34,045 bases of DNA from Acutalibacteraceae bacterium (GCA_045597065.1 JAZODO010000160.1:1-34045), one strand, 5' to 3'. Positions 2,037 through 14,038 are shown, counted from the stretch's first letter. The notes: generated by a model not told the origin, from the sequence alone. Program-made: numbers and translations.

Positions 2037-4483
<2,447 letters not shown>

Positions 4484-4518
4484 ATTATCACCGCCTTACA
4501 AATTAAGGTAACTTTAAG

Positions 4519-4830
4519 TTATTCAAAAATTATACGAATTGTTTCTTTTATGGCTGCTTCTCTTTCTTTGTCGGCTTTGGCCGAAAGTTTTTCGCCTTCT
4601 GCCCAACCTTTACGCTTACCATTTTCTTTAATTTCGGTAGCGGCAAGTTCGGCGTCGGCAATTATTTTAGCAGCGTCGGCATCTACTTGAGCGGCCGCTA
4701 AAACAGCTTGGTTTTTAGTTTCTTCTTTAGTAGCCGCAATAAGTTCTTTTGCCTTTTGGTCGGCATTTAAAATTATTTCGGCCGATTTCGCTTCGGTTTC
4801 GCGAATTTTATCTATCATACTTTTAACCAT
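4519..4830 (-). CDS. V-type ATP synthase subunit G/H-like coiled-coil stalk protein (NtpF position in E. hirae nomenclature)
   Basis: 103-aa Ala/Glu/Lys-rich predicted single long helix. It is the first gene of the ATPase block, immediately upstream of subunit I. Assignment rests on position and composition only. Confidence 0.6.
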   Translation of the reverse strand: MVKSMIDKIRETEAKSAEIILNADQKAKELIAATKEETKNQAVLAAAQVDADAAKIIADAELAATEIKENGKRKGWAEGEKLSAKADKEREAAIKETIRIIFE

Positions 4831-4843
4831 TTAAAACACCTCT

Positions 4844-6139
4844 TTAATGCTTTACTTTAGCGGCAATTATACGTTCGGCCGCAAAACCTATAAGGAAAAC
4901 TATTGTTGTTGGAAGTACCCACGCCAGACCTACGTTTGAAAGCGGGAGTTCTTTTATAAAAGATACCGAAATTCCAAAAGCCGCAAGGCCGTCGAAAACA
5001 CCAAACACAAGGGCGGTATAGGCGCCACACCTTATTGAAAGTTTCGAAAGTTTACCGTAGAAAAAGCTTAAAATTACTAAAACCAGAACGGGCGGATAAA
5101 CAACGCTTAAAATAGGAGCGGCAAAGTTTATTAGGCTTTCTACCCCAACGAGCGAAATTACCGCGCCGAAGGCACAAATTGCTAAAACGAAATAGCGGTA
5201 TTTAACCTTTTGCTTTGTAATTTCTTCTAAATATTCGGCCGCCGACGAGGTTAGGGCAACCGCGGTAGAAACACAAGCAAAACCCGCTACAACCGCAAAG
5301 AATATACTACCAACCTTACCGGGGAGCAGCGTTTCTATTATAGAAGAAAGTAGCTGAGTACGGTAAATGTGCATATCGTAATTAGAGGAGGCGGTAGCGC
5401 CAAGGTAGGTAAGGCCTAAATAAACAACCAAAAGGCCAAGCCCCGCAACTATGCCCGCGCCCGCAACAACCCTTGCCTTAGAAGAGGCGTTTTCGTGCCC
5501 TTTAGCCGAAGCGCTATTCAAAATTAACATACCGAAAACTATGGCGGCTAAAACATCCATAGATTGATACCCGGCTTCAATTCCGTTTCCGATTACGCTT
5601 TCGGTACGGGGGCCAAGTTCTATTTGGCCCATAGGGGTAATAAGCCCCATAACAATTAAAAAGAGAAGACCGAAAAATAAAATAGGGGTTAAAAACTTAC
5701 CTACTATATCGATAACGGCCGATTTATTTATACTAAGGAGCGCCACTACCGCAAAAAAGATTAGGTAGAAAACCGCCATATTAAAACGGGGTAAAAGCGG
5801 AGAAACCGAAAGTTCGAAGGTTGTAGCGGCGGTTCGGGGAATACTAATTATAGGACCTATACACATTATGATAACAAAGAACATAACGCTACCCACTTTA
5901 GAACCTAGGGGACTTAGTAGCCTTTTATGGCCCTCGGTTTTAATTTGAGAAAGAATTGCAACAACGGCAAGGCCGATATCGGCAATATAGTAGCCCAAAA
6001 AGCCGGAAAACCACTCGGTTCCCGCTTTAAAACCTAAATAGGGCGGAAATATCATATTGCCGGCGCCAAAAAACATTGAAAAAAGGGCAGCGCCGATTAC
6101 AACACTATCTAAAATAATTTTTTTATTGCTTTTGTGCAT
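4844..6139 (-). CDS. brnQ: Branched-chain amino acid:cation symporter (LIVCS family, BrnQ)
   Basis: 431-aa polytopic protein with the N-terminal FGAGNMIFPPYLG motif characteristic of BrnQ. It lies 13 nt upstream of the first V-ATPase gene with no terminator between them. Confidence 0.9.
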   Translation of the reverse strand: MHKSNKKIILDSVVIGAALFSMFFGAGNMIFPPYLGFKAGTEWFSGFLGYYIADIGLAVVAILSQIKTEGHKRLLSPLGSKVGSVMFFVIIMCIGPIISIPRTAATTFELSVSPLLPRFNMAVFYLIFFAVVALLSINKSAVIDIVGKFLTPILFFGLLFLIVMGLITPMGQIELGPRTESVIGNGIEAGYQSMDVLAAIVFGMLILNSASAKGHENASSKARVVAGAGIVAGLGLLVVYLGLTYLGATASSNYDMHIYRTQLLSSIIETLLPGKVGSIFFAVVAGFACVSTAVALTSSAAEYLEEITKQKVKYRYFVLAICAFGAVISLVGVESLINFAAPILSVVYPPVLVLVILSFFYGKLSKLSIRCGAYTALVFGVFDGLAAFGISVSFIKELPLSNVGLAWVLPTTIVFLIGFAAERIIAAKVKH

Positions 6140-7751: not shown

Positions 7752-8903
7752 TTATATCTTAGCTTTAATAAACTTTAAAATCTCGTTTTGGTCTTTTGCT
7801 AAAAGTTTTCCTTGTGTACAGTTTGGCTTTCCGCCGCCTTTACCCGAAAAAGCTCCGTTTAACTCTTTAGTAATTTCGGTTAGGTTTTCGCTTTTAGATA
7901 AGAGAAGATAATTAAAATTATTACCCTCTTCAAAAGAGAAAAGGGCTACTGTTTTAGCCGTTTCACAAAGGGTGTTCGCGATATTTCTAAGACAATTAAA
8001 ATCGGCATTTTGGGTAAAGCCAATAACCGACTCCCCTACCTTTTCGGTTTTAAGGTTTGCGGTAGCGAGTTTTTCTAAAAGCCCCTTATTTTCAAAGCGG
8101 GCAGCATTAAGGTCGGCAGATAGTTTTTCAACCGACTCGGCTATTTCTTCTCTTTTTGCAGAAAGTTGTTTCATAATACTTTTAGCAGCGTTATGAAGAT
8201 AAGTATAATCGGCAAGAGCGAGCGAACCCGCAACCATTTCGATACGAGTACCACCCTTAAAAGAGTAAAAGTTTACTATTTTAATAAGGCCAATCTCCCC
8301 CGCTCTAGCAGGATGGGGAGCGCAACAAGCACAGATGTCGAAACCTTCTACATTTATAAGGCGAACGCCCTCTTTAAGTTCTATTTTGCTACGGCAATTT
8401 ATATTTTCAAACTCTTCTACCGTTGGGGTTAGTACCGTAATTTCGGCATTTTCGAAAACGGCGCGGTTGGCTTCGAGTTCTATCTGCTCAATGTTTTCGG
8501 GGGTTAGTGTACCGCTAACATCAAACGTAACAAGCGAATCGTTCATATGAAAACCAACGTTATTAAACCCGAAAAGTTTATGAATAACGCCCGATAAAAT
8601 ATGTTCGGCACAGTGGTTTTGCATACGAGAAAAGCGAAGTGCGAAGTCAATTTTACCGACTACTTCTTCTAAAACATTCAAGGGGCTTTCCAGGGTATGA
8701 ACAACCTCTTCGCCACTTTCTTGAACATCTAAAACGGGGATGCCATTTAACACACCTTTATCGGGGGCTTGGCCGCCGCCTTCGGGAAAAAATGCAGTTT
8801 TATCGAGGATTACTAAAAACTTACCGTTTTTCTCTGTACAGGAAACTACGGTAGCAGTAAATTCTTTTATATAAGAATTTGTTTCGTAAAGTTTTTGTGT
8901 CAT
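7752..8903 (-). CDS. alaX: AlaX-L type alanyl-tRNA editing protein (Ser/Gly-tRNA(Ala) deacylase; AlaRS second additional domain plus DHHA1-like C-terminus)
   Basis: 383 aa. Zinc-site motifs HxxxH (NHCAEHILSG) and CxxxH (CACCAPHPARAGEIG) are present, plus C-terminal GKGGGKPNCTQGK resembling the DHHA1 GGG..AQG motif. Confidence 0.8.
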   Translation of the reverse strand: MTQKLYETNSYIKEFTATVVSCTEKNGKFLVILDKTAFFPEGGGQAPDKGVLNGIPVLDVQESGEEVVHTLESPLNVLEEVVGKIDFALRFSRMQNHCAEHILSGVIHKLFGFNNVGFHMNDSLVTFDVSGTLTPENIEQIELEANRAVFENAEITVLTPTVEEFENINCRSKIELKEGVRLINVEGFDICACCAPHPARAGEIGLIKIVNFYSFKGGTRIEMVAGSLALADYTYLHNAAKSIMKQLSAKREEIAESVEKLSADLNAARFENKGLLEKLATANLKTEKVGESVIGFTQNADFNCLRNIANTLCETAKTVALFSFEEGNNFNYLLLSKSENLTEITKELNGAFSGKGGGKPNCTQGKLLAKDQNEILKFIKAKI

Positions 8904-8991
8904 AAAATTGTCCTTTAAGAATTACTTGTATAGTTAAATCATTGTTAGCGGTGGGATCAAGCCCCCACCCTACGCTATAATATTTGCTTAC

Positions 8992-9022
8992 TTAAATAAA
9001 GAGGCCGAAAACGCTCGACCTC
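8992..9022 (-). terminator. Intrinsic terminator after gatB
   Basis: Minus-strand RNA forms gaggucg(agcguuuu)cggccuc, a 7-bp stem with one G-U, followed by UUUAUUUAA. It lies 11 nt downstream of the gatB stop. Confidence 0.65.
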
Positions 9023-9032
9023 TTTTTAGTTT

Positions 9033-10439
9033 TTAGTTAAGTTTTTGTTCGAGTAATGATTTAATTACGGCAGGGTCGCCAATTCCTTTTAGTTCCTTCA
9101 TACAAGAACCAAAGAGGGCCATTAGCGCTTTAACCTTACCGCCCTTATAGTCGGCAACGGCGGCAGGATTTTCGGCAATAACGCGGTCGACAACCGCTTC
9201 GATTTGGGCGGCATCTACCTTAGCATTAAGTCCCTGTTCTTCGCAATAGTTGTCAACATCTACATCATTTTCAAATACAGCGGCAAGAACCTTTTTACCC
9301 GCATTACGGGTAATTTCGCTACTATCGACAAGTTCGATAATACGGGAAAGTTTTTCGGGCGCGATAGATAAGGTTTCTAGGCCTAAATAGCGCATACGGC
9401 TCATACATTCGGTTAAAATCCAAGAAGCAACGCTCTTAGGTTCTCTGCCCATTTCTACAACCTTATCGAACATAGCGCAAAGTTTAGCATCGCTTGCCAA
9501 TACTGCGGCTTCTTTTACAGCAATACCCATATCTACGTATTTTTGGCCCTTTTCTTCGGCAGTAGCGGGCATGCCGGCCTTAATTTCGGCAAGCCATTCA
9601 TCATCGATAATAATAGGCATAAGGTTCGGGTCGGGGAAATAGCGGTAGTCGCCCGCGGTTTCTTTATTTCTCATAGGGAAGGTTCTACGCTTAACTTCGT
9701 CCCAACGGCGGGTTTCTTGAACGAGCATTTCGGTACGGCGTTCGATAGCGTCGACATGGCGAACCTTTTCAAATTCGATAGCGTCTTTAATTTCGGCGAA
9801 TGAGCTCATATTTTTAATTTCGCTTCTAACGCCTAGTTGGTCGGAACCTTCGGGGCGAACAGAGATGTTAACGTCGCAACGCATAGCGCCTTCTTCACAT
9901 TCCGAAATTCCGGCAAATTGAAGAGCGGCTTTAAGCTTTTTAAGGTAGGTTATAACCTCGTCGGAACTTCTGAAATCGGGTTTAGAAACGATTTCGATTA
10001 GAGGTACACTTGTACGGTTATAGTCTACAAGAGAGGTGTTGGTAGCGTCGTCGTGAACGAGTTTACCCGCATCTTCTTCTACGTGAATTTGCTTAATGCC
10101 TATTTTTCTTTCGCCTACTTCTACGCTGCCTTCTACGCAAACGGGGTTAAACCATTGGGTAATTTGGTAGGCGCAGGGTAGGTCGGGATAATAGTAACTT
10201 TTTTTATCGAAGGTAGTATACTGGTTAATTTTGCAGTTAAGCATTAAACCCGCTTTAACGGCGAGTTCGATAGCGTGTTTGTTAGTTACGGGAAGCATAC
10301 CTGGCATACCCGAGCAAGCAGGACAAACACAGTCGTTAGGCTCATCGGCAGCGGCATGGCCACCGCAAGAACAAAAAAGTTTTGAATCGGTAGCAAGTTC
10401 TACGTGGGTTTCCAGACCAATAACGAGTTCGTATTTCAT
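9033..10439 (-). CDS. gatB: Asp-tRNA(Asn)/Glu-tRNA(Gln) amidotransferase subunit B
   Basis: MKYELVIGLETHVEL..., DKKSYYYPDLP, IHVEEDAGK and a C-terminal YqeY-like tail are present. I place the start at the ATG at 10439, which has an AAGGAGGAAG RBS and lies 1 nt after the gatA stop. The ORF-track start at 10472 adds 11 unsupported residues. Confidence 0.9.
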   Translation of the reverse strand: MKYELVIGLETHVELATDSKLFCSCGGHAAADEPNDCVCPACSGMPGMLPVTNKHAIELAVKAGLMLNCKINQYTTFDKKSYYYPDLPCAYQITQWFNPVCVEGSVEVGERKIGIKQIHVEEDAGKLVHDDATNTSLVDYNRTSVPLIEIVSKPDFRSSDEVITYLKKLKAALQFAGISECEEGAMRCDVNISVRPEGSDQLGVRSEIKNMSSFAEIKDAIEFEKVRHVDAIERRTEMLVQETRRWDEVKRRTFPMRNKETAGDYRYFPDPNLMPIIIDDEWLAEIKAGMPATAEEKGQKYVDMGIAVKEAAVLASDAKLCAMFDKVVEMGREPKSVASWILTECMSRMRYLGLETLSIAPEKLSRIIELVDSSEITRNAGKKVLAAVFENDVDVDNYCEEQGLNAKVDAAQIEAVVDRVIAENPAAVADYKGGKVKALMALFGSCMKELKGIGDPAVIKSLLEQKLN

Positions 10440-10440
10440 A

Positions 10441-11646
10441 TTATGCTTCCTCCTTTTCCAAAACTTTTGCAAAACTTAAAAGTTCGCTTTCGGCAAAATA
10501 GTTGCCAACAAGTTGAATTCCGCCGGAAACTACCGCAGGCATACCTGTAATAGAAGCGGGCGCGGTATATGCGCTTTCTTCGAAAACGGTTCTAAACTGT
10601 TCGGCAAATTCTTCGCCGTCGAGAGTTTTTGCGGTAGAAACGTCGAGTTCTTTAGTTTGACTAAATGCGGGAATTAAGAGTGCGGTAAAGCCTTTTTCGA
10701 AAAGCGCGGTTAAAGCTTCTACCGCGAGTTTACGAATTTTAAGGGCCTTATCGTAGCAAGATTCGTATTTACCTTTAGAGAGTACGTCGGAACCGTAGAT
10801 AATGGTAGCTTTGGTTAAGAAGTTAAAGCCTTCGGTTCGGCTACCAACATAGAGTTCGTCGATATTTTTGTATTTTTCGGTTCTGTGGCCATATTTAACG
10901 CCATCGAAACGAGAAAGGTTATTGGTAGTTTCGGCCGACATTAGAATATTCCAAGCGGTTTGAATATCTTTTACAAGGGGAAGAGAGATTTCTTCTACTT
11001 CTACGCCCTGTTTTTTAAGTTCTTCGGCAGTATCAAGTAGTTTTACCTTAGCCTCATTAGTAGCAAGGTTTAAAAGTTCTTTAATAATAGCAACCTTTTT
11101 ACCCTTTACAGAAAGGCCTGTATTATATTCGTATTTTTCGGTTTTAAGTGAGGTTCCGTCTTTAGAGTCGAAACCTGATACTACGCCTAAAACTTCGGCA
11201 GCGGTATCGGCATTTTTAGCAGTAACGCCAATTTGTTCTCCCGAACAAGCGCAAGCGATAACACCATAACGGGAAACAGTACCGTAGGTGGGCTTTACAA
11301 AGGTAACTCCCTTTATTGCGGCGGCACGACGGGGCGCACCGTTTAAATCAACATTTAAAGCGGCTTTTACCGCGCCTTCGGCTACAAGAGCGGCAGCGGC
11401 ACAAGTTTCATTTTCAGAAGTTTCGCCGTAAAGGTCGAGCCCGAATTCGCCAACAGCGGTTTTACCCGAAAGGGTGTAACCGGCAGCGGTAAGTTTTTCT
11501 ACTGCGGTTGCAGTAAATAAGGGAACAAAGTTTTTAAGCATTTTAGAACCGGCAGTTGCAGGATAGCCTTTTACTAAAATAGTATCGTCTACCGCGATGT
11601 TGCCGTTTTTACTGATTTCTGTAATATATTTAGCCAATTTACACAC
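10441..11646 (-). CDS. gatA: GatA-like amidase-family protein, N-terminally truncated and apparently lacking the Ser-cisSer-Lys triad
   Basis: Collinear with GatA (AGSKMLKNFVPLFTATAVEKL, KPTYGTVSRYG, NLSRFDGVKYG, SRTEGF) and placed between gatC and gatB. It is about 400 aa and has no GGSSGGS loop. The start is ambiguous: GTG at 11646, or TTG at 11637 with better RBS spacing. Confidence 0.75.
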   Translation of the reverse strand: MCKLAKYITEISKNGNIAVDDTILVKGYPATAGSKMLKNFVPLFTATAVEKLTAAGYTLSGKTAVGEFGLDLYGETSENETCAAAALVAEGAVKAALNVDLNGAPRRAAAIKGVTFVKPTYGTVSRYGVIACACSGEQIGVTAKNADTAAEVLGVVSGFDSKDGTSLKTEKYEYNTGLSVKGKKVAIIKELLNLATNEAKVKLLDTAEELKKQGVEVEEISLPLVKDIQTAWNILMSAETTNNLSRFDGVKYGHRTEKYKNIDELYVGSRTEGFNFLTKATIIYGSDVLSKGKYESCYDKALKIRKLAVEALTALFEKGFTALLIPAFSQTKELDVSTAKTLDGEEFAEQFRTVFEESAYTAPASITGMPAVVSGGIQLVGNYFAESELLSFAKVLEKEEA

Positions 11647-11652
11647 CTACCT

Positions 11653-13758
11653 TTACTTTACGAGTCTGGGAACCTGCCAACTATCTTCGGTAGCCTGAGG
11701 AGCGCCCGAAAGTAGGTCGGCACGGGAGAAGGGTTGTTTTCTTTCGTCGGTTCTAAGAACATTGGTCATAGGACGAACGTGAACCATAGATTCGGTATTT
11801 TCGGTATCTACCTTACCGAGTTCTTCTTCTTTAAGGGCCATGTTTTTAAAGATTTTTTCCATAGCCTTCTTTTCGTCGGTATCAAATTTAAGTTGGTTTA
11901 CCTGTTCGAGTGCATCGAGTTTTGCTTTACCCGAAGTAACCCCGGCTTTAGAGGCAGAAACGGCCGAAGCAAAAGCCGAGCCATCGCCCGCAGAACCGAA
12001 GGTATCGGCACCTTCTTTACCGCGAATAGCAACGTTGGCTTCGAATAGTTGAAGTTCGGTAACTTCGCTTGGAGCGCCAAGTAACTGGTCTTGGGCGGCG
12101 CCATCTAGCGGGAATGCGATAACGTCGCGAATGGTTTCGGTGTCGGCTAAAAGCATTACAATACGGTCGACACCGGGGGCCATACCTGCATGAGGGGGCG
12201 CACCGAATTGGAAAGCGTTATAAAGCGCAGAGAAACGCTTTTCAACTTCGCTTTCTTCGTAGCCCGCAATAGAGAAGGCCTTTCTCATAATTTCGGGGCT
12301 GTGGTTACGAACTGCACCGGATGCAAGTTCTATACCGTTACAAACAAGGTCGTACTGGTAGGCGTTAATTGTACAAGGGTCTTTTGTTTCGAGCGCTTCG
12401 AGTCCGCCTTGGGGCATTGAGAAGGGGTTGTGGGTAAAGATGATGCTGTCGGTAGTTTCGTCGAGTTCGTACATAGGGAAATCTACAACGAAGCAGAATT
12501 CGAAAGAATCTTTATTGATAAGGCCGAGTTCGTTACCAAGCCAGGTACGAATAACACCTGCGTTTTTGTCGGCAGTGCCGGACACGTTGTCGCAAATGAA
12601 GAAGATTGTTTCTCCCTCTTTAACGCCGGTTAGTTCTACGATTTCGCGTTTTTGTTCGTCAGATAAAACCTTTGAAATCGGGTCGTCTTTAAAGGTATAG
12701 GTAGCGGCATCGAGTAAAGTGATATGAGCAAGGCCTGCCATTTTTGCTTGTTTTTGAGCAAAGTCGAGCGATTTATCGAAGAACCAACGCTCTGCCTTAC
12801 AAGGAGCAACAATACCGCGAACGGGTTTGTTCATAAAGGGTTTAAAGGGAGCGCGGGTAAAGAAATCGGAAAGGTCGCAAATAATAAGGGGGTTTCTAAG
12901 GTCGGGCTTATCGGAGCCGTATTTAGCCATTGCTTCGGCAAAGGGAATTCTTCTAAAAGGGGTAGAAGAAATAGGCTTATCAGAGAAGGTTCTAAACACA
13001 TCGGCAACAACCGATTCACAAACTTCCAGAACTTCATCTTGGGTAGCAAAGGCCATTTCGAAGTCGAGCTGATAGAACTCGCCGGGGGAACGGTCGGCAC
13101 GAGCATCTTCGTCTCTAAAACAGGGGGCAATTTGGAAATAACGGTCGAAACCGGACACCATTAAAAGTTGTTTAAATTGCTGAGGTGCTTGGGGAAGAGC
13201 GTAGAATTTACCCGGATGTTTACGAGAAGGTACAAGGAAGTCGCGAGCGCCTTCGGGAGAAGAGGCGGTTAGAATAGGAGTTTGAATATCTAAAAATCCG
13301 CGTTCTTCCATAAGGCGGCGCATATGGCCGATAACCTTACTGCGAAGAATAATATTATCGTGAAGTTTTTTAGAACGTAGGTCTAAAAAGCGGTGTTTAA
13401 GACGGATGTTTTCGTTAGTATTTACCGCGCCTACTTCAAAGGGTAAATCTCTGGTACAAGCGCCGAGTACGGTTACGCTATCGGCTACAAGTTCTACGTC
13501 GCCTGTTGCGATTTTTGGGTTTTCGGTTCCCGCATCACGAAGGGTAACGGTACCCTTTGTAGAAATAACGGTTTCTTTGGCGATTCCTTTAAGCAGGTTT
13601 TCGTTATGAACAACTACCTGGGTTACGCCCGTTTCGTCGCGCAAATCGACAAACAAAACTCCGCCGTGGTCGCGAATTACTTCGACCCAGCCTGCGAGTT
13701 CTACCGTTTGACCGATATGCTCTTTTCTTATTTCGTTGCAACGATGAGTTCTATACAT
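11653..13758 (-). CDS. aspS: Aspartyl-tRNA synthetase (bacterial type with GAD insertion) fused in frame to a C-terminal GatC domain
   Basis: Starts at MYRTHRCNEIRKEHIGQTVELAGWV (GGAGG RBS). Class II motifs are present (FRDEDARADRSPGEFYQLDFE; GAPPHAGMAPGVDRIVML). After ...EANVAIR comes a 34-aa G/A/S-rich linker (nt 11920-12021), then 88 aa of GatC-like sequence (nt 11656-11919) ending VHVRPMTNVLRTDERKQPFSRADLLSGAPQATEDSWQVPRLVK. The 42 codons upstream of the ATG in the ORF track cover the T-box terminator and are not coding. Confidence 0.85.
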   Translation of the reverse strand: MYRTHRCNEIRKEHIGQTVELAGWVEVIRDHGGVLFVDLRDETGVTQVVVHNENLLKGIAKETVISTKGTVTLRDAGTENPKIATGDVELVADSVTVLGACTRDLPFEVGAVNTNENIRLKHRFLDLRSKKLHDNIILRSKVIGHMRRLMEERGFLDIQTPILTASSPEGARDFLVPSRKHPGKFYALPQAPQQFKQLLMVSGFDRYFQIAPCFRDEDARADRSPGEFYQLDFEMAFATQDEVLEVCESVVADVFRTFSDKPISSTPFRRIPFAEAMAKYGSDKPDLRNPLIICDLSDFFTRAPFKPFMNKPVRGIVAPCKAERWFFDKSLDFAQKQAKMAGLAHITLLDAATYTFKDDPISKVLSDEQKREIVELTGVKEGETIFFICDNVSGTADKNAGVIRTWLGNELGLINKDSFEFCFVVDFPMYELDETTDSIIFTHNPFSMPQGGLEALETKDPCTINAYQYDLVCNGIELASGAVRNHSPEIMRKAFSIAGYEESEVEKRFSALYNAFQFGAPPHAGMAPGVDRIVMLLADTETIRDVIAFPLDGAAQDQLLGAPSEVTELQLFEANVAIRGKEGADTFGSAGDGSAFASAVSASKAGVTSGKAKLDALEQVNQLKFDTDEKKAMEKIFKNMALKEEELGKVDTENTESMVHVRPMTNVLRTDERKQPFSRADLLSGAPQATEDSWQVPRLVK

Positions 13759-14005
13759 TAAATTGCCTCCATATTGCTTTTTATAAACAAAAAATAAAGC
13801 CCCGAGAATACCAAAAAGTATTCTCGGGACGAATAGAATAAAATATCCGCGGTGCCACCCGGTTTGGTGTTTTACTAAAAACACCCGCTTTTATATTTAG
13901 TTGAGACGGCGACGAAGCGTTCCCTACTTACTACTTATCTGAAACGCGCTTTCAGTCGGCGACGCGTTCTCCCTGGCAGACTTTCCAAAAAAGCAGAGTC
14001 TTCGT
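13759..14005 (-). promoter_or_regulatory. T-box riboswitch leader (tRNA-sensing); best-fitting specifier codon AAC (Asn) at 13919-13921
   Basis: Minus-strand RNA contains the T-box sequence AAACCGGGUGGCACCGCGG (13847-13865). It also has an AG-bulge-like AGGGAGA, a distal-loop-like GACUGAAAG, and a terminator/antiterminator pair. AAC followed by a purine (G) sits immediately 5' of CUUCGU, which can pair with ACGAAG at the 5' end. Confidence 0.8.
13788..13828 (-). terminator. T-box leader terminator (attenuator) hairpin
   Basis: Minus-strand RNA forms cccgagaauac(uuuuug)guauucucggg, an 11-bp perfect stem, followed by GCUUUAUUUUUU. It lies 30 nt upstream of the aspS ATG. Its 5' arm is preceded by UUCGUCCC, the usual antiterminator 3' strand. 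Confidence 0.8.
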
Positions 14006-14010
14006 TTATT

Positions 14011-14038
14011 ATTATACCAAAAAAGTTTAATTTGTCAA
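14011..14038 (-). promoter_or_regulatory. Sigma-A-type promoter of the T-box/aspS-gatC-gatA-gatB operon
   Basis: The minus strand reads TTGACA, a 16-nt spacer, then TATAAT, with TGg just upstream of the -10 (extended -10). Confidence 0.6.

Follow-up and report, generated by a model that had tools for sequence, protein, structure and literature searches.

An operon under T-box(Asn) control that may encode an AspRS-tethered, glutamine-independent Asn-transamidosome in uncultured gut and rumen Clostridia

What does a cell gain from an operon that is placed under a tRNA(Asn)-sensing T-box leader and encodes an aspartyl-tRNA synthetase (AspRS) fused to GatC, a shortened GatA homologue that seems to have lost its glutaminase site, and a GatB with its catalytic motifs in place, and from where would the products of these genes draw their amide nitrogen? 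The question is raised by a 34,045-nucleotide stretch of DNA (hereafter the window), on whose minus strand lie the promoter, the T-box and all three genes. The closest relatives of the operon are found in metagenome-assembled genomes (MAGs) of Acutalibacteraceae and Oscillospiraceae, and the host is an uncultured gut or rumen Clostridium. Our answer, offered tentatively and with somewhat less than even confidence, is that the operon would constitute a self-contained module, induced by asparagine starvation, for the indirect synthesis of Asn-tRNA(Asn), and that its products would form a glutamine-independent Asn-transamidosome working on free ammonia. The gene architecture, the loss of the GatA triad and the conservation of that loss, the GatB motifs, and the T-box features were read from sequence, and from them we infer complex formation, the Asn-tRNA(Asn) product and the ammonia donor.

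Transcription would start from a sigma-70-type promoter (14011..14038, minus strand, as for all features below) composed of TTGACA, a 16-nt spacer and TATAAT with the TG of an extended -10 element, which matches the consensus at 12 of 12 positions. The T-box leader that follows (13822..14011), with stem I, stem III, T-box sequence and antiterminator, aligns to the full RF00230 model (14011..13822, model positions 1-219, 46.6 bits, E=4e-9), but its score falls short of the gathering threshold of 93 bits, at which RF00230 has no match in the window, so that a default Rfam scan misses it. Its specifier context is GGG-AAC-G, in which the Asn codon AAC (13921..13919) is followed by a purine, G (13918); AAC plus purine (A or G) is kept in 62 of 68 related upstream regions, and the triplet overlapping AAC varies by locus, being GAA, CAA or UAA. 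The T-box motif GGGUGGCACCGCG (~13865..13847) has its UGGC bulge at 13857..13854, kept in 62 of 63 related leaders, and the leader fold has a z of -2.8. An intrinsic T-box terminator (13789..13830), recognized from the terminator scan, which places it at 13830..13799, and from the RF00230 alignment, has a 14-bp stem with 7 GC pairs and a T-run. Terminator and antiterminator are mutually exclusive, the 5' arm of the former overlapping the 3' strand of the latter, with CGUCCC common to both. By these sequence features the T-box is Asn-specific and its UGGC bulge fits a G73 tRNA, and the initial annotation's description of one promoter and one Asn T-box leader ahead of three packed ORFs is borne out. 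Since induction by uncharged tRNA(Asn) is sensible only with products that restore Asn-tRNA(Asn), this control itself supports such a role for the operon.

The first gene encodes a 701-aa fusion that begins at ATG 13758 and ends at 11653; GTG 13884, given as its start in the ORF list, was rejected, as that position falls within the leader. A profile-HMM scan places the Pfam domains tRNA_anti-codon, tRNA-synt_2, GAD and GatC in a single frame, in keeping with the fusion of aspS to gatC originally proposed. The AspRS part (residues 1-~579; 12022..13758; PF01336, PF00152, PF02938) is of the bacterial type, with an OB anticodon-binding domain, a class II core and a GAD insertion, and scores 734.9 bits with NF001750 against a cut-off of 443, the GAD match being weak (22.6 bits against 23.4). 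It is joined by a Gly/Ala/Ser-rich, poorly conserved linker of ~32 residues (11926..12021), without a family match here, to the GatC part (residues ~612-701 and the stop codon; 11653..11925), which scores 33.7 bits with Pfam GatC against 23 and 45.5 bits with TIGR00135 against 47.1. GatC, normally a free protein of ~95 aa that belts the GatA-GatB interface, is here the C-terminus of AspRS. The same in-frame AspRS-GatC ORF, 689-706 aa long across relatives, occurs in 73 of 77 independent related loci from MAGs of uncultured gut and rumen Clostridia obtained in many studies, and hence the aspS-gatC junction is no artefact. The AspRS part evolves under strong constraint (dN/dS 0.01-0.05), and we infer, solely from the Asn T-box and the genes that accompany it, that it is non-discriminating, charging tRNA(Asn) in addition to tRNA(Asp) or in its place.

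The second gene (10441..11646), whose assignment draws on Pfam Amidase, PDB alignments and dN/dS, encodes a GatA-derived pseudo-glutaminase, here called GatA'. It is 401 aa long if read from GTG 11646, which leaves the 6-nt gap initially described, or 398 aa if read from TTG 11637, which leaves a gap of 15 nt; the TTG start, agreeing with the MAKYI start of relatives, is the more likely one. Pfam Amidase matches GatA' over profile positions 135-445 only, and ~60 N-terminal residues are lacking. In HMMER alignments to solved GatA structures, K79 and S178 of the S. aureus protein correspond to D20 and A104, and the GGSSGGS segment holding S154 (cis-Ser) is missing, so that GatA' has none of the three members of the Ser-cisSer-Lys triad (S. 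aureus S178, S154, K79). The glutamine-binding positions Y309, R358 and D425 (S. aureus numbering; for the roles of such GatA residues, yeast R334 and D418, see PMC4027206) have become W232, T281 and S358, substitutes that are invariant in the family alignment. The three-gene arrangement with a short GatA was sought in relatives and found, yielding 75 copies of the latter, in all of which the catalytic Lys position is Asp and in none of which the cis-Ser position is Ser, the loop being deleted or hydrophobic, while the nucleophile position holds Ala in 57 copies, Ser and Thr in 7 each, and another residue in 4 (including Y, F and G). Around the old active site, VDLNG[A/S/T]PRRAAA and KPTYGTVSRYG are conserved, and the short GatA is always a complete open frame of 382-401 aa.

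With TIGR00132, GatA' scores 247.1 bits, below the equivalog cut-off of 481.1, and its relatives carry the NCBI label 'hypothetical protein'. Its kinship is evident nonetheless in a phmmer search of the PDB, which returns GatA (3h0l_A, E=1e-56), and in a Foldseek search with its AlphaFold model (pLDDT 63.6, moderate confidence), where 3h0l_A is matched with a TMq of 0.74 and the top ten are all GatA; by alignment and predicted model, then, its fold is that of the amidase-signature family, with GatA as nearest relative. Its dN/dS of 0.08-0.17, 3-5 fold more relaxed than the 0.01-0.06 of AspRS and GatB, together with the Lys-to-Asp change in 75 of 75 copies, marks it as a conserved pseudoenzyme, and purifying yet relaxed selection is the pattern that a scaffold would give. 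The degenerate, glutaminase-less GatA of the initial annotation thus agrees with HMM and PDB alignments, neither of which shows an intact amidase triad, and GatA' would be 'glutaminase-dead'.

The third gene, gatB (9033..10439; 468 aa, ATG 10439 to 9033), follows GatA' after 1 nt, with translational coupling signals intact in the operon. It scores 556.6 bits with NF004012 against 338, contains Pfam GatB_N and GatB_Yqey, and aligns over its full length to T. maritima GatB, with the catalytic cradle and the YqeY tail intact; GLExH, HxEEDAGK, PLIEIV, RCDxNIS and ExKNM are invariant across 77 copies, and dN/dS is 0.02-0.06. Its description as intact-looking holds for the catalytic motifs but not for the 3_10 turn (S. 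aureus 183-186), which is two residues (K-M) short in every one of the 77 GatB copies from such operons, whereas the residues are kept in the canonical GatB of loci L047 and L062, in L087-L090 and in T. maritima. This turn tells U1-A72 from G1-C72 (PMC2811023). The tRNA(Asn) of one relative, L024, has G1-C72, and the deletion suggests that the usual U1-A72 proofreading is relaxed, selection being exerted by the tether and AspRS instead. The Lys of the conserved GatB motif PDLPK(G/A)YQ, which in PDLPKGYQ we take to be a tunnel residue, is Cys in the window; its replacement points to a remodelled ammonia path and counts against a simple free-ammonia reading. Directly 3' of the gatB stop, sequence inspection finds a terminator-like hairpin, AGAGGTCG...CGGCCTCT, with a T-rich tail (~8994..9023), which is absent from the output of a simple terminator scan; it is the probable end of the operon, and hairpin plus T-run at this place confine the transcription unit to three genes.

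In the mechanism that we propose, uncharged tRNA(Asn) would pair both with the specifier, AAC, and with the UGGC bulge, terminator formation would be blocked, and the three genes would be transcribed. The AspRS domain would load Asp onto tRNA(Asn). Since the flexible ~32-residue linker ties this domain to GatC, which holds GatA and GatB together like a belt, the acceptor end could swing in cis into GatB, which would phosphorylate the beta-carboxyl and then amidate it. GatA' would be retained purely as a structural partner needed by GatB and GatC and, being unable to hydrolyse glutamine, would leave the amide nitrogen to enter as free NH3/NH4+, which is abundant in gut and rumen, glutamine and the ATP for its synthesis being saved. 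There is precedent for such chemistry, since AdTs use free ammonia in vitro: yeast mitochondrial GatFAB, whose transamidase is of the GatB type, transamidates with 20 mM NH4Cl, its glutaminase being bypassed, and a mutant with a perturbed glutaminase site is faster on NH4Cl, so that loosening this site can raise the use of free ammonia (PMC4027206).

The same complex might instead receive ammonia from a separate amidohydrolase docked on it or acting alongside, an asparaginase/GatD-like (type-I) neighbour that would either play the role of GatD for GatE or hydrolyse imported Asn and so provide Asp and NH3, both of which the module uses as substrates. This is unlikely in our judgement, yet in 23 of 83 related loci a divergent asparaginase-family gene (330-365 aa, PF00710, GGTIC and HGTDT motifs) adjoins the operon, its placement taking four orientations (including downstream same-strand, upstream divergent and upstream same-strand), and adjacency that outlasts rearrangement argues for a functional link, so that in many relatives a protein partner rather than bulk ammonia may supply the nitrogen. 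The top PDB matches of its product are archaeal asparaginases and GatD; as a GatD it scores 68 bits against a cut-off of 310-324, and the N-terminal domain of GatD is missing from it. Three members taken from long contigs are all tail-to-tail with the operon but, by shared synteny, represent one lineage; and while in L048 only ~20 nt without a hairpin separate gatB from the gene, a strong hairpin intervenes in most same-strand loci. The gene is, moreover, missing from the 34-kb window and not adjacent to the operon in L004-L008, the closest relatives of the window, the asparaginase catalytic Lys was not located in the consensus of the neighbour family, and asparagine catabolism, as a mere metabolic link, would explain the neighbourhood without physical coupling. 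Quite improbable, in turn, is that Asn-tRNA(Asn) is made by a canonical GatCAB, AsnRS or AsnB elsewhere and that the module is mainly a T-box-regulated AspRS, with GatC, GatA' and GatB appended to hold tRNA(Asn) or to serve in regulation; such an appendage could keep Asp-tRNA(Asn) sequestered, work solely as a kinase, or pass the tRNA on to the canonical enzyme. A canonical gatCAB, whose GatA retains K/S/S, does lie directly downstream in L047 and L062, where the degenerate set is therefore not the sole AdT; canonical gatCAB, asnS or asnA/asnB may also exist in the genome beyond the 34-kb window; no other part is nearly as constrained as AspRS (97% identity in the nearest relatives, against ~70% for GatA'); and C. 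acetobutylicum illustrates that Clostridia can hold redundant aspS and gatCAB sets (PMC4206432). Against this, a canonical set occurs within 6 kb in only 2 of ~80 loci, the Mg2+/ATP site and cradle of GatB are invariant in 77 copies at the dN/dS given above, which is unexpected for a mere tRNA holder, and three co-translated genes kept under T-box(Asn) across several families favour a catalytic product.

That GatA' is still an amidohydrolase, with a new chemistry or another donor, appears very improbable. Strong conservation around the old active site would accord with it, as would Ser or Thr at the nucleophile position in 14 of 75 copies, and these residues or the invariant Asp20/Asp21 would be the candidates. 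Yet the general-base Lys is Asp throughout, the cis-Ser loop is deleted or hydrophobic, none of the three residues that bind the glutamine backbone is retained, the nucleophile position is mostly Ala and otherwise variable, which is uncharacteristic of a catalytic residue, and dN/dS is relaxed. An artefact or product of decay, in which the aspS-gatC junction would stem from a frameshift or misassembly and gatA would be a pseudogene, has a next to negligible chance of being correct: nothing but the unusual look of one sequence speaks for it, and it was rejected in view of the recurrence of the fusion in independent MAG loci, the short GatA frames that are always open and under purifying selection, and the intact translational coupling signals.

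The ammonia-fed Asn-transamidosome that we favour has several known counterparts. In C. acetobutylicum, a T-box(Asn) ('NT-box') governs an aspS2-gatCAB2 operon (Saad et al. 2012 JBC; Saad et al. 2013 PNAS; both as cited in PMC4206432 and PMC4574755), likewise in a Clostridium and with one tRNA(Asn)-responsive T-box over AspRS and a whole GatCAB set, an arrangement by which the entire indirect Asn pathway is switched on by Asn-tRNA shortage. Set beside that operon, the window has a gatC fused to aspS, a truncated, triad-less GatA and a GatB without the 3_10 turn, and the second (Glu) codon reported for the NT-box is not conserved in window-type leaders. Asn-transamidosomes (ND-AspRS:tRNA(Asn):GatCAB; T. 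thermophilus 3KFU, P. aeruginosa 4WJ3, H. pylori) have the same four protein parts as those encoded in the window and presumably the same order of reaction, in which the acceptor end flips over to GatB once AspRS has acted; as in 4WJ3, the AspRS is of the bacterial type with a GAD domain. Known transamidosomes, however, are non-covalent and tRNA-dependent and use the GatA glutaminase, whereas in the window a covalent link ties AspRS to GatC, and the active site of GatA is missing. The domain order of the fusion is that of NF009460 (PRK12820, 'bifunctional aspartyl-tRNA synthetase/aspartyl/glutamyl-tRNA amidotransferase subunit C'), which matches residues 7-688 of its 701 aa over profile positions 26-710 of 723, but at 432.1 bits against a cut-off of 1379 it is not a member of that equivalog; a literature search found no paper on the NF009460 family.

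GatFAB has a fully active GatA (S154-cisS130-K52) and the NH4Cl bypass occurs in vitro, whereas the products of the window operon would rely on it naturally. A precedent for the asparaginase-like neighbour of relatives is archaeal GatDE, whose GatD subunit, of the asparaginase fold, supplies a paralogue of GatB with ammonia, although that neighbour is only distantly GatD-like and tied to the operon by gene adjacency, and GatA' is still present; archaeal GatB, too, has no 3_10 turn and takes G1-C72 tRNA(Asn) (PMC2811023). The combination, initially held to be undescribed, remains so insofar as our literature search found no description of a glutaminase-less GatCAB, but the T-box(Asn) aspS-gatCAB operon cited in PMC4206432 and the AspRS/GatC fusions of NF009460 are precedents for its parts. 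As a prediction, the hard-wired, glutaminase-dead transamidosome of the initial annotation is supported. Ammonia-dependent relatives of glutamine amidotransferases are familiar from AsnA, as opposed to AsnB, and from NH3-dependent NadE without a glutaminase domain. These follow the same logic of dropping the glutaminase where ammonia abounds, but lose the whole domain, while the window keeps a dead copy, presumably for assembly with GatB and GatC.

We regard the chances as evenly balanced that the operon represents, in its most derived form, a widespread and undescribed class of tRNA-dependent amidotransferases that do without glutamine, which would have a scaffold GatA, archaeal-like relaxed recognition of the acceptor stem by GatB, AspRS welded on, and nitrogen from free ammonia or from an asparaginase-fold GatD analogue. 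If so, glutamine would be dispensable for the synthesis of Asn-tRNA(Asn), and perhaps of all asparagine, in many Clostridia of gut and rumen. Triad-less GatA homologues are also encoded in gatC-gatA-gatB operons of several other lineages, a recurrence that suggests a viable arrangement with repeated origins, and a second, distant lineage of AspRS-GatC fusions (L085, AspRS 41% identical) is likewise followed by a triad-less GatA.

GatA′, the short GatA homologue encoded on the minus strand of the window, has an apparent GTG start at 11646, after a 6-nt gap from the preceding fusion gene, and more probably begins at TTG 11637 (15-nt gap), in agreement with the MAKYI start of its relatives. Pfam Amidase covers it over profile positions 135-445 only, it scores 247 bits against the GatA equivalog TIGR00132 (cut-off, 481), and HMMER alignments to solved GatA structures place its first residue at about residue 69-77 of canonical GatA. 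In the same alignments the Ser-cisSer-Lys glutaminase triad (S178, S154 and K79 in S. aureus numbering) is dismantled: K79 becomes D20, the nucleophile S178 (role described in PMC2330236) becomes A104, and the GGSSGGS loop carrying the cis-Ser S154 is absent. Residues that hold the glutamine backbone, with roles stated for the yeast enzyme (PMC4027206), are replaced as well (Y309 by W232, R358 by T281, and D425 by S358). Every glutaminase determinant checked is thus predicted from sequence to be lost, as the initial annotation had proposed in describing a glutaminase-dead GatA homologue. The GatA fold is retained (phmmer against 3h0l_A, E=1e-56), and an AlphaFold model of moderate quality, built on a 16-sequence alignment (pLDDT 63.6, pTM 0.70) and used for the fold match alone, has GatA chains as its best matches (TMq 0.71-0.74).

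A protein search recovered a family of GatA′ relatives of 382-399 aa, labelled "hypothetical protein" by NCBI, whose named members all come from uncultured Clostridia. A scan of one genome per GTDB species gave at least 583 relatives, and the best 80 loci, all in metagenome-assembled genomes (MAGs), belong to Acutalibacteraceae, Oscillospiraceae, Lachnospiraceae, Monoglobaceae and unclassified Clostridia, their named sources being mostly animal gut or rumen. The gene order AspRS, GatC, short GatA, GatB recurs in every related locus with enough flank. Two Oscillibacter MAG loci, L047 (5565..8781) and L062 (~9100..12053), have a complete canonical gatC-gatA-gatB set, with intact triad and 3_10 turn, straight after an unfused degenerate one, followed by an asparaginase-like gene; the arrangement resembles a tandem duplication, which suggests that it is an ancestral stage of the system.

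The loss extends across the family. Among 75 short GatA copies, the K79 position is Asp in all, the S154 position is Ser in none, and the S178 position is Ala in 57, Ser in 7, Thr in 7 and another residue in 4, with K, S and S retained in the second, canonical GatA of L047 and L062. Pairwise dN/dS values are 0.08-0.17 for GatA′, 0.04-0.13 for the linker plus GatC, 0.01-0.05 for AspRS and 0.02-0.06 for GatB. GatA′ is under purifying selection, several-fold more relaxed than that on its catalytic partners, a pattern that fits a scaffold, and it is neither an artefact nor a pseudogene. Its invariant EKEEA C-terminus is encoded by GAAAAGGAGGAAGCA (10441..10458, minus strand), which is the Shine-Dalgarno sequence of gatB; a protein-level role for the tail was therefore rejected, and its invariance is probably a nucleotide constraint of translational coupling.

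The gatB gene (9033..10439, minus strand) starts 1 nt past the GatA′ stop. Its product, annotated initially as intact-looking, can be aligned with T. maritima GatB over its entire length and scores above the GatB equivalog cut-off (556.6 bits, cut-off 338), and 77 copies of GatB′, the GatB of this operon type, show no variation in the motifs GLExH, HxEEDAGK, PLIEIV, RCDxNIS and ExKNM. GatB′ is predicted to be catalytic but altered, with two kinds of change. Canonical GatB keeps the Lys of the motif PDLPK(G/A)YQ, whereas 75 of the 77 copies have Cys, Ala or Ser in its place (PDLPCAYQ in the window), and the GatB of L088, a more distant locus, has Thr; this Lys is probably S. aureus K88 (by our own count) and H. 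pylori K89, a putative lining residue of the ammonia tunnel. In addition, the two residues K-M of the 3_10 turn are missing in 77/77 copies ("SDCKMQEGS" becoming "SEC--EEGA") and are retained in the canonical GatB of L047 and L062, the GatB of L087-L090 and T. maritima GatB. According to Nakamura et al., bacterial GatCAB uses this turn (S. aureus 183-186) to distinguish U1-A72 from G1-C72, and archaeal GatB, 1-3 residues shorter there, accepts G1-C72 (PMC2811023). The tRNA genes seen among related loci include tRNA(Asn)(GUU) of L024 (5..80), with G1-C72 and G73, tRNA(Asn)(GUU) of L071 (2397..2472), with U1-A72 and G73, and tRNA(Gln)(CUG) of L032 (3364..3437, minus strand), with A1-U72. The G1-C72 pair of L024 would be unusual in a substrate of a bacterial tRNA-dependent amidotransferase (AdT), and it fits the loss of the turn in GatB′.

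The fusion gene starts at ATG 13758 (minus strand) and encodes 701 aa, in which a Gly/Ala/Ser-rich linker of ~32 residues joins an N-terminal AspRS of bacterial type (734.9 bits for NF001750, cut-off 443) to a GatC domain (33.7 against 23 bits in Pfam); a GTG start at 13884, from a mechanical ORF list, was rejected as it sits within the leader. Of 77 related loci, 73 have AspRS and GatC in a single ORF of 689-706 aa, and the other four (L047, L048, L062 and L082) have them unfused. In L082, ~2.5 kb (3129..5665) separate aspS from gatC and hold two ORFs, one Ser/Thr-kinase-like (331 aa) and one of 213 aa without family match. The genome of L054 has at least two AspRS genes, since an archaeal-type aspartate--tRNA(Asn) ligase (2260..3609; 434 bits for NF003483, cut-off 353) is encoded just upstream of the T-box/fusion operon.

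Upstream of the fusion gene, a sigma-70-type promoter (14038..14011, minus strand; TTGACA, 16 nt, TG-TATAAT, 12/12 consensus matches) precedes a T-box leader (14011..13822, minus strand) that matches RF00230 over the full length of the model (46.6 bits, E=4e-9), a score below the curated gathering score of 93 bits, so that the leader is seen in an E-value threshold scan only and an Rfam scan of the window at the gathering threshold gave no match. The leader has a stem I specifier loop, GGG-AAC-G, with AAC at 13921..13919 (minus strand), a stem III, a T-box sequence GGGUGGCACCGCG with a UGGC bulge, and a terminator (13830..13799, minus strand) of a 14-bp stem and T-run whose 5′ arm is common to the antiterminator; a hairpin with a T-rich tail 3′ of the gatB stop, on the same strand, is the probable operon end. 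Promoter, T-box, fusion, GatA homologue and gatB are all located as first described. Of 68 regions upstream of related operons, 63 carry the T-box motif and 62 have AAC followed by a purine. The triplet preceding AAC is GGG in 39, GGC in 18 and others in 5; since it varies, the overlapping second codon (GAA, CAA or UAA) is not conserved. The bulge is UGGC in 62/63 related leaders and pairs with the G73 discriminator, the base found in both tRNA(Asn) genes (L024 and L071). A Thr specifier (ACA/ACG) was rejected, being followed by C, not a purine, and the UGGC bulge suiting a G73 tRNA; bacterial tRNA(Thr) has A73. The leader is thus predicted to be an Asn T-box across the family, three Lachnospiraceae loci apart. 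These three (L038, L055 and L063) carry the fused operon too, but without the T-box motif, and share another conserved leader upstream of aspS (~3600..3920), …CCGGC.GTCC.GTACGTGCAGGATAA….

The T-box(Asn) control elements, the fusion, the predicted glutaminase loss, conservation under selection and the intact GatB motifs form the observed basis for a working model in which the function of each operon component is a prediction from its sequence. Uncharged tRNA(Asn) would turn the operon on, the AspRS domain would produce Asp-tRNA(Asn), and the GatC tether would hold GatA′ and GatB beside AspRS, so that the acceptor end could be handed on in cis; GatB would then phosphorylate and amidate with ammonia not made by GatA′. 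The gut and rumen are ammonia-rich. GatB-type enzymes transamidate with 20 mM NH4Cl, and a loosened glutaminase site can increase NH4Cl-driven activity (PMC4027206); given this activity and the gut and rumen habitat of the carriers, free ammonia is a plausible donor.

Two main rivals to free ammonia as the donor are to be weighed, namely that nitrogen is supplied by a partner amidohydrolase, and that the real amidation is carried out by a canonical GatCAB elsewhere in the genome. For the former, a divergent type-I asparaginase-family gene (PF00710, 330-365 aa) adjoins the operon in 23 of 83 related loci (L012, L015, L021, L026, L028, L031-L033, L040, L047, L048, L050, L053, L054, L057, L062, L067-L069, L071, L074, L075 and L081), lying on the operon's strand, either downstream or upstream of it, or upstream in divergent orientation; it is found neither in the 34-kb window nor adjacent to the operon in the closest relatives of the window. 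GGTIC and HGTDT motifs are conserved in the family, which among PDB entries is closest to archaeal asparaginases and GatD. Its product could be a GatD-like ammonia donor and could equally be a plain asparaginase, converting imported Asn to Asp and NH3. In L091-L093 the gene lies at 8001..9056; three members picked from long contigs are all tail-to-tail with the operon and, having synteny in common, count as one lineage. The 60-140-nt gap between gatB and the asparaginase-like gene holds strong GC-rich hairpins (-16 to -47 kcal/mol), most without a T-run, in L028, L032, L040, L054, L069, L071, L074, L075, L081 and L050, which could be partial terminators or elements of mRNA processing or stability. 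The canonical GatCAB rival is favoured by L047 and L062, where a canonical set is immediately downstream. In the 34-kb window, Pfam on 20 other ORFs found no asnS, asnA/asnB, glnS or second gatCAB, a result with little bearing on the remainder of the genome, and a tRNA scan found no tRNA gene; those ORFs encode housekeeping proteins such as V-ATPase subunits, transporters, EF-G, GerA, Der, PlsY and GpsA.

Loss of the triad is also seen in other lineages. When 1.84 billion representative proteins were searched with a profile, 135 of the best 150 matches were at least 340 aa long. Of these, 67 have an intact K-S-S triad, 9 differ at one triad residue, and 30 N-terminally truncated and 29 full-length proteins have lost two or more; the list is biased towards the query family, and the counts are alignment-dependent. 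The five dead gatA copies whose context was examined all lie in gatC-gatA-gatB operons. L084 and L088 have aspS, gatC, dead gatA and gatB, unfused; L087 and L090 have gatC, dead gatA and gatB with housekeeping genes alongside; and L085 has a full-length GatA downstream of a distant AspRS-GatC fusion whose AspRS is 41% identical. The full-length homologues have the triad changed to T/C/D in P0144 (L085, 1712..3142), Q/A/C in P0210 (L087, 1149..2624), A/A/A in P0240 (L090, 2181..3662) and D/V/E in P0133 (L088, 6001..7359); a search with P0133 returned canonical GatAs only, at ~42% identity, with no cultured carrier among the matches. At 515.7 bits, P0144 clears the TIGR00132 cut-off of 481.1, and annotation pipelines will therefore call it a functional GatA. 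The dead gatA copies in operons of several lineages, together with this score, point to a glutaminase loss that is recurrent and largely invisible to annotation.

Among known systems, C. acetobutylicum comes closest, with an aspS2-gatCAB2 operon under T-box(Asn) control (Saad et al., 2012, as related in PMC4206432 and PMC4574755). The AspRS-GatC architecture is already modelled by NCBIfam NF009460, against which the window fusion scores 432 bits with a cut-off of 1379 and is therefore not a member; a literature search for AspRS-GatC fusions found no relevant paper, and the known transamidosomes (Thermus, Pseudomonas, Helicobacter), unlike the fusion, are non-covalent. Within an incomplete coverage of the literature, we found no description of a natural glutaminase-less GatCAB, a triad-less GatA, or a bacterial GatB without the 3_10 turn. 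In textbooks, GatCAB exemplifies the coupling of a glutaminase to a tRNA-dependent kinase/transamidase via a 30 Å ammonia tunnel; a natural, conserved glutaminase-less form would show tunnel and coupling to be dispensable in ammonia-rich habitats and would offer a ready system for the ammonia route to the GatB site. The covalent AspRS-GatC link is a natural experiment in transamidosome substrate channelling and, with the 3_10 turn loss, is relevant to how Asp-tRNA(Asp) escapes amidation. With short GatA labelled "hypothetical" and P0144 above the cut-off, metabolic reconstructions of gut Clostridia may err on the routes to Asn-tRNA and asparagine and on glutamine dependence.

Lastly, an AlaX-like gene (7752..8903, minus strand) lies 129 nt downstream of gatB in the window and encodes an AlaRS-C fragment, tRNA_SAD and DHHA1 domains with HxxxH and CxxxH motifs. 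Its product may be a trans-editing factor tied to the pathway of the operon. Homologues occur in 13 related loci (L004, L005, L007, L008, L030, L044, L046, L050, L052, L054, L075, L081 and L020), in most of them after gatB or the asparaginase-like gene, and in L020 upstream on the opposite strand.
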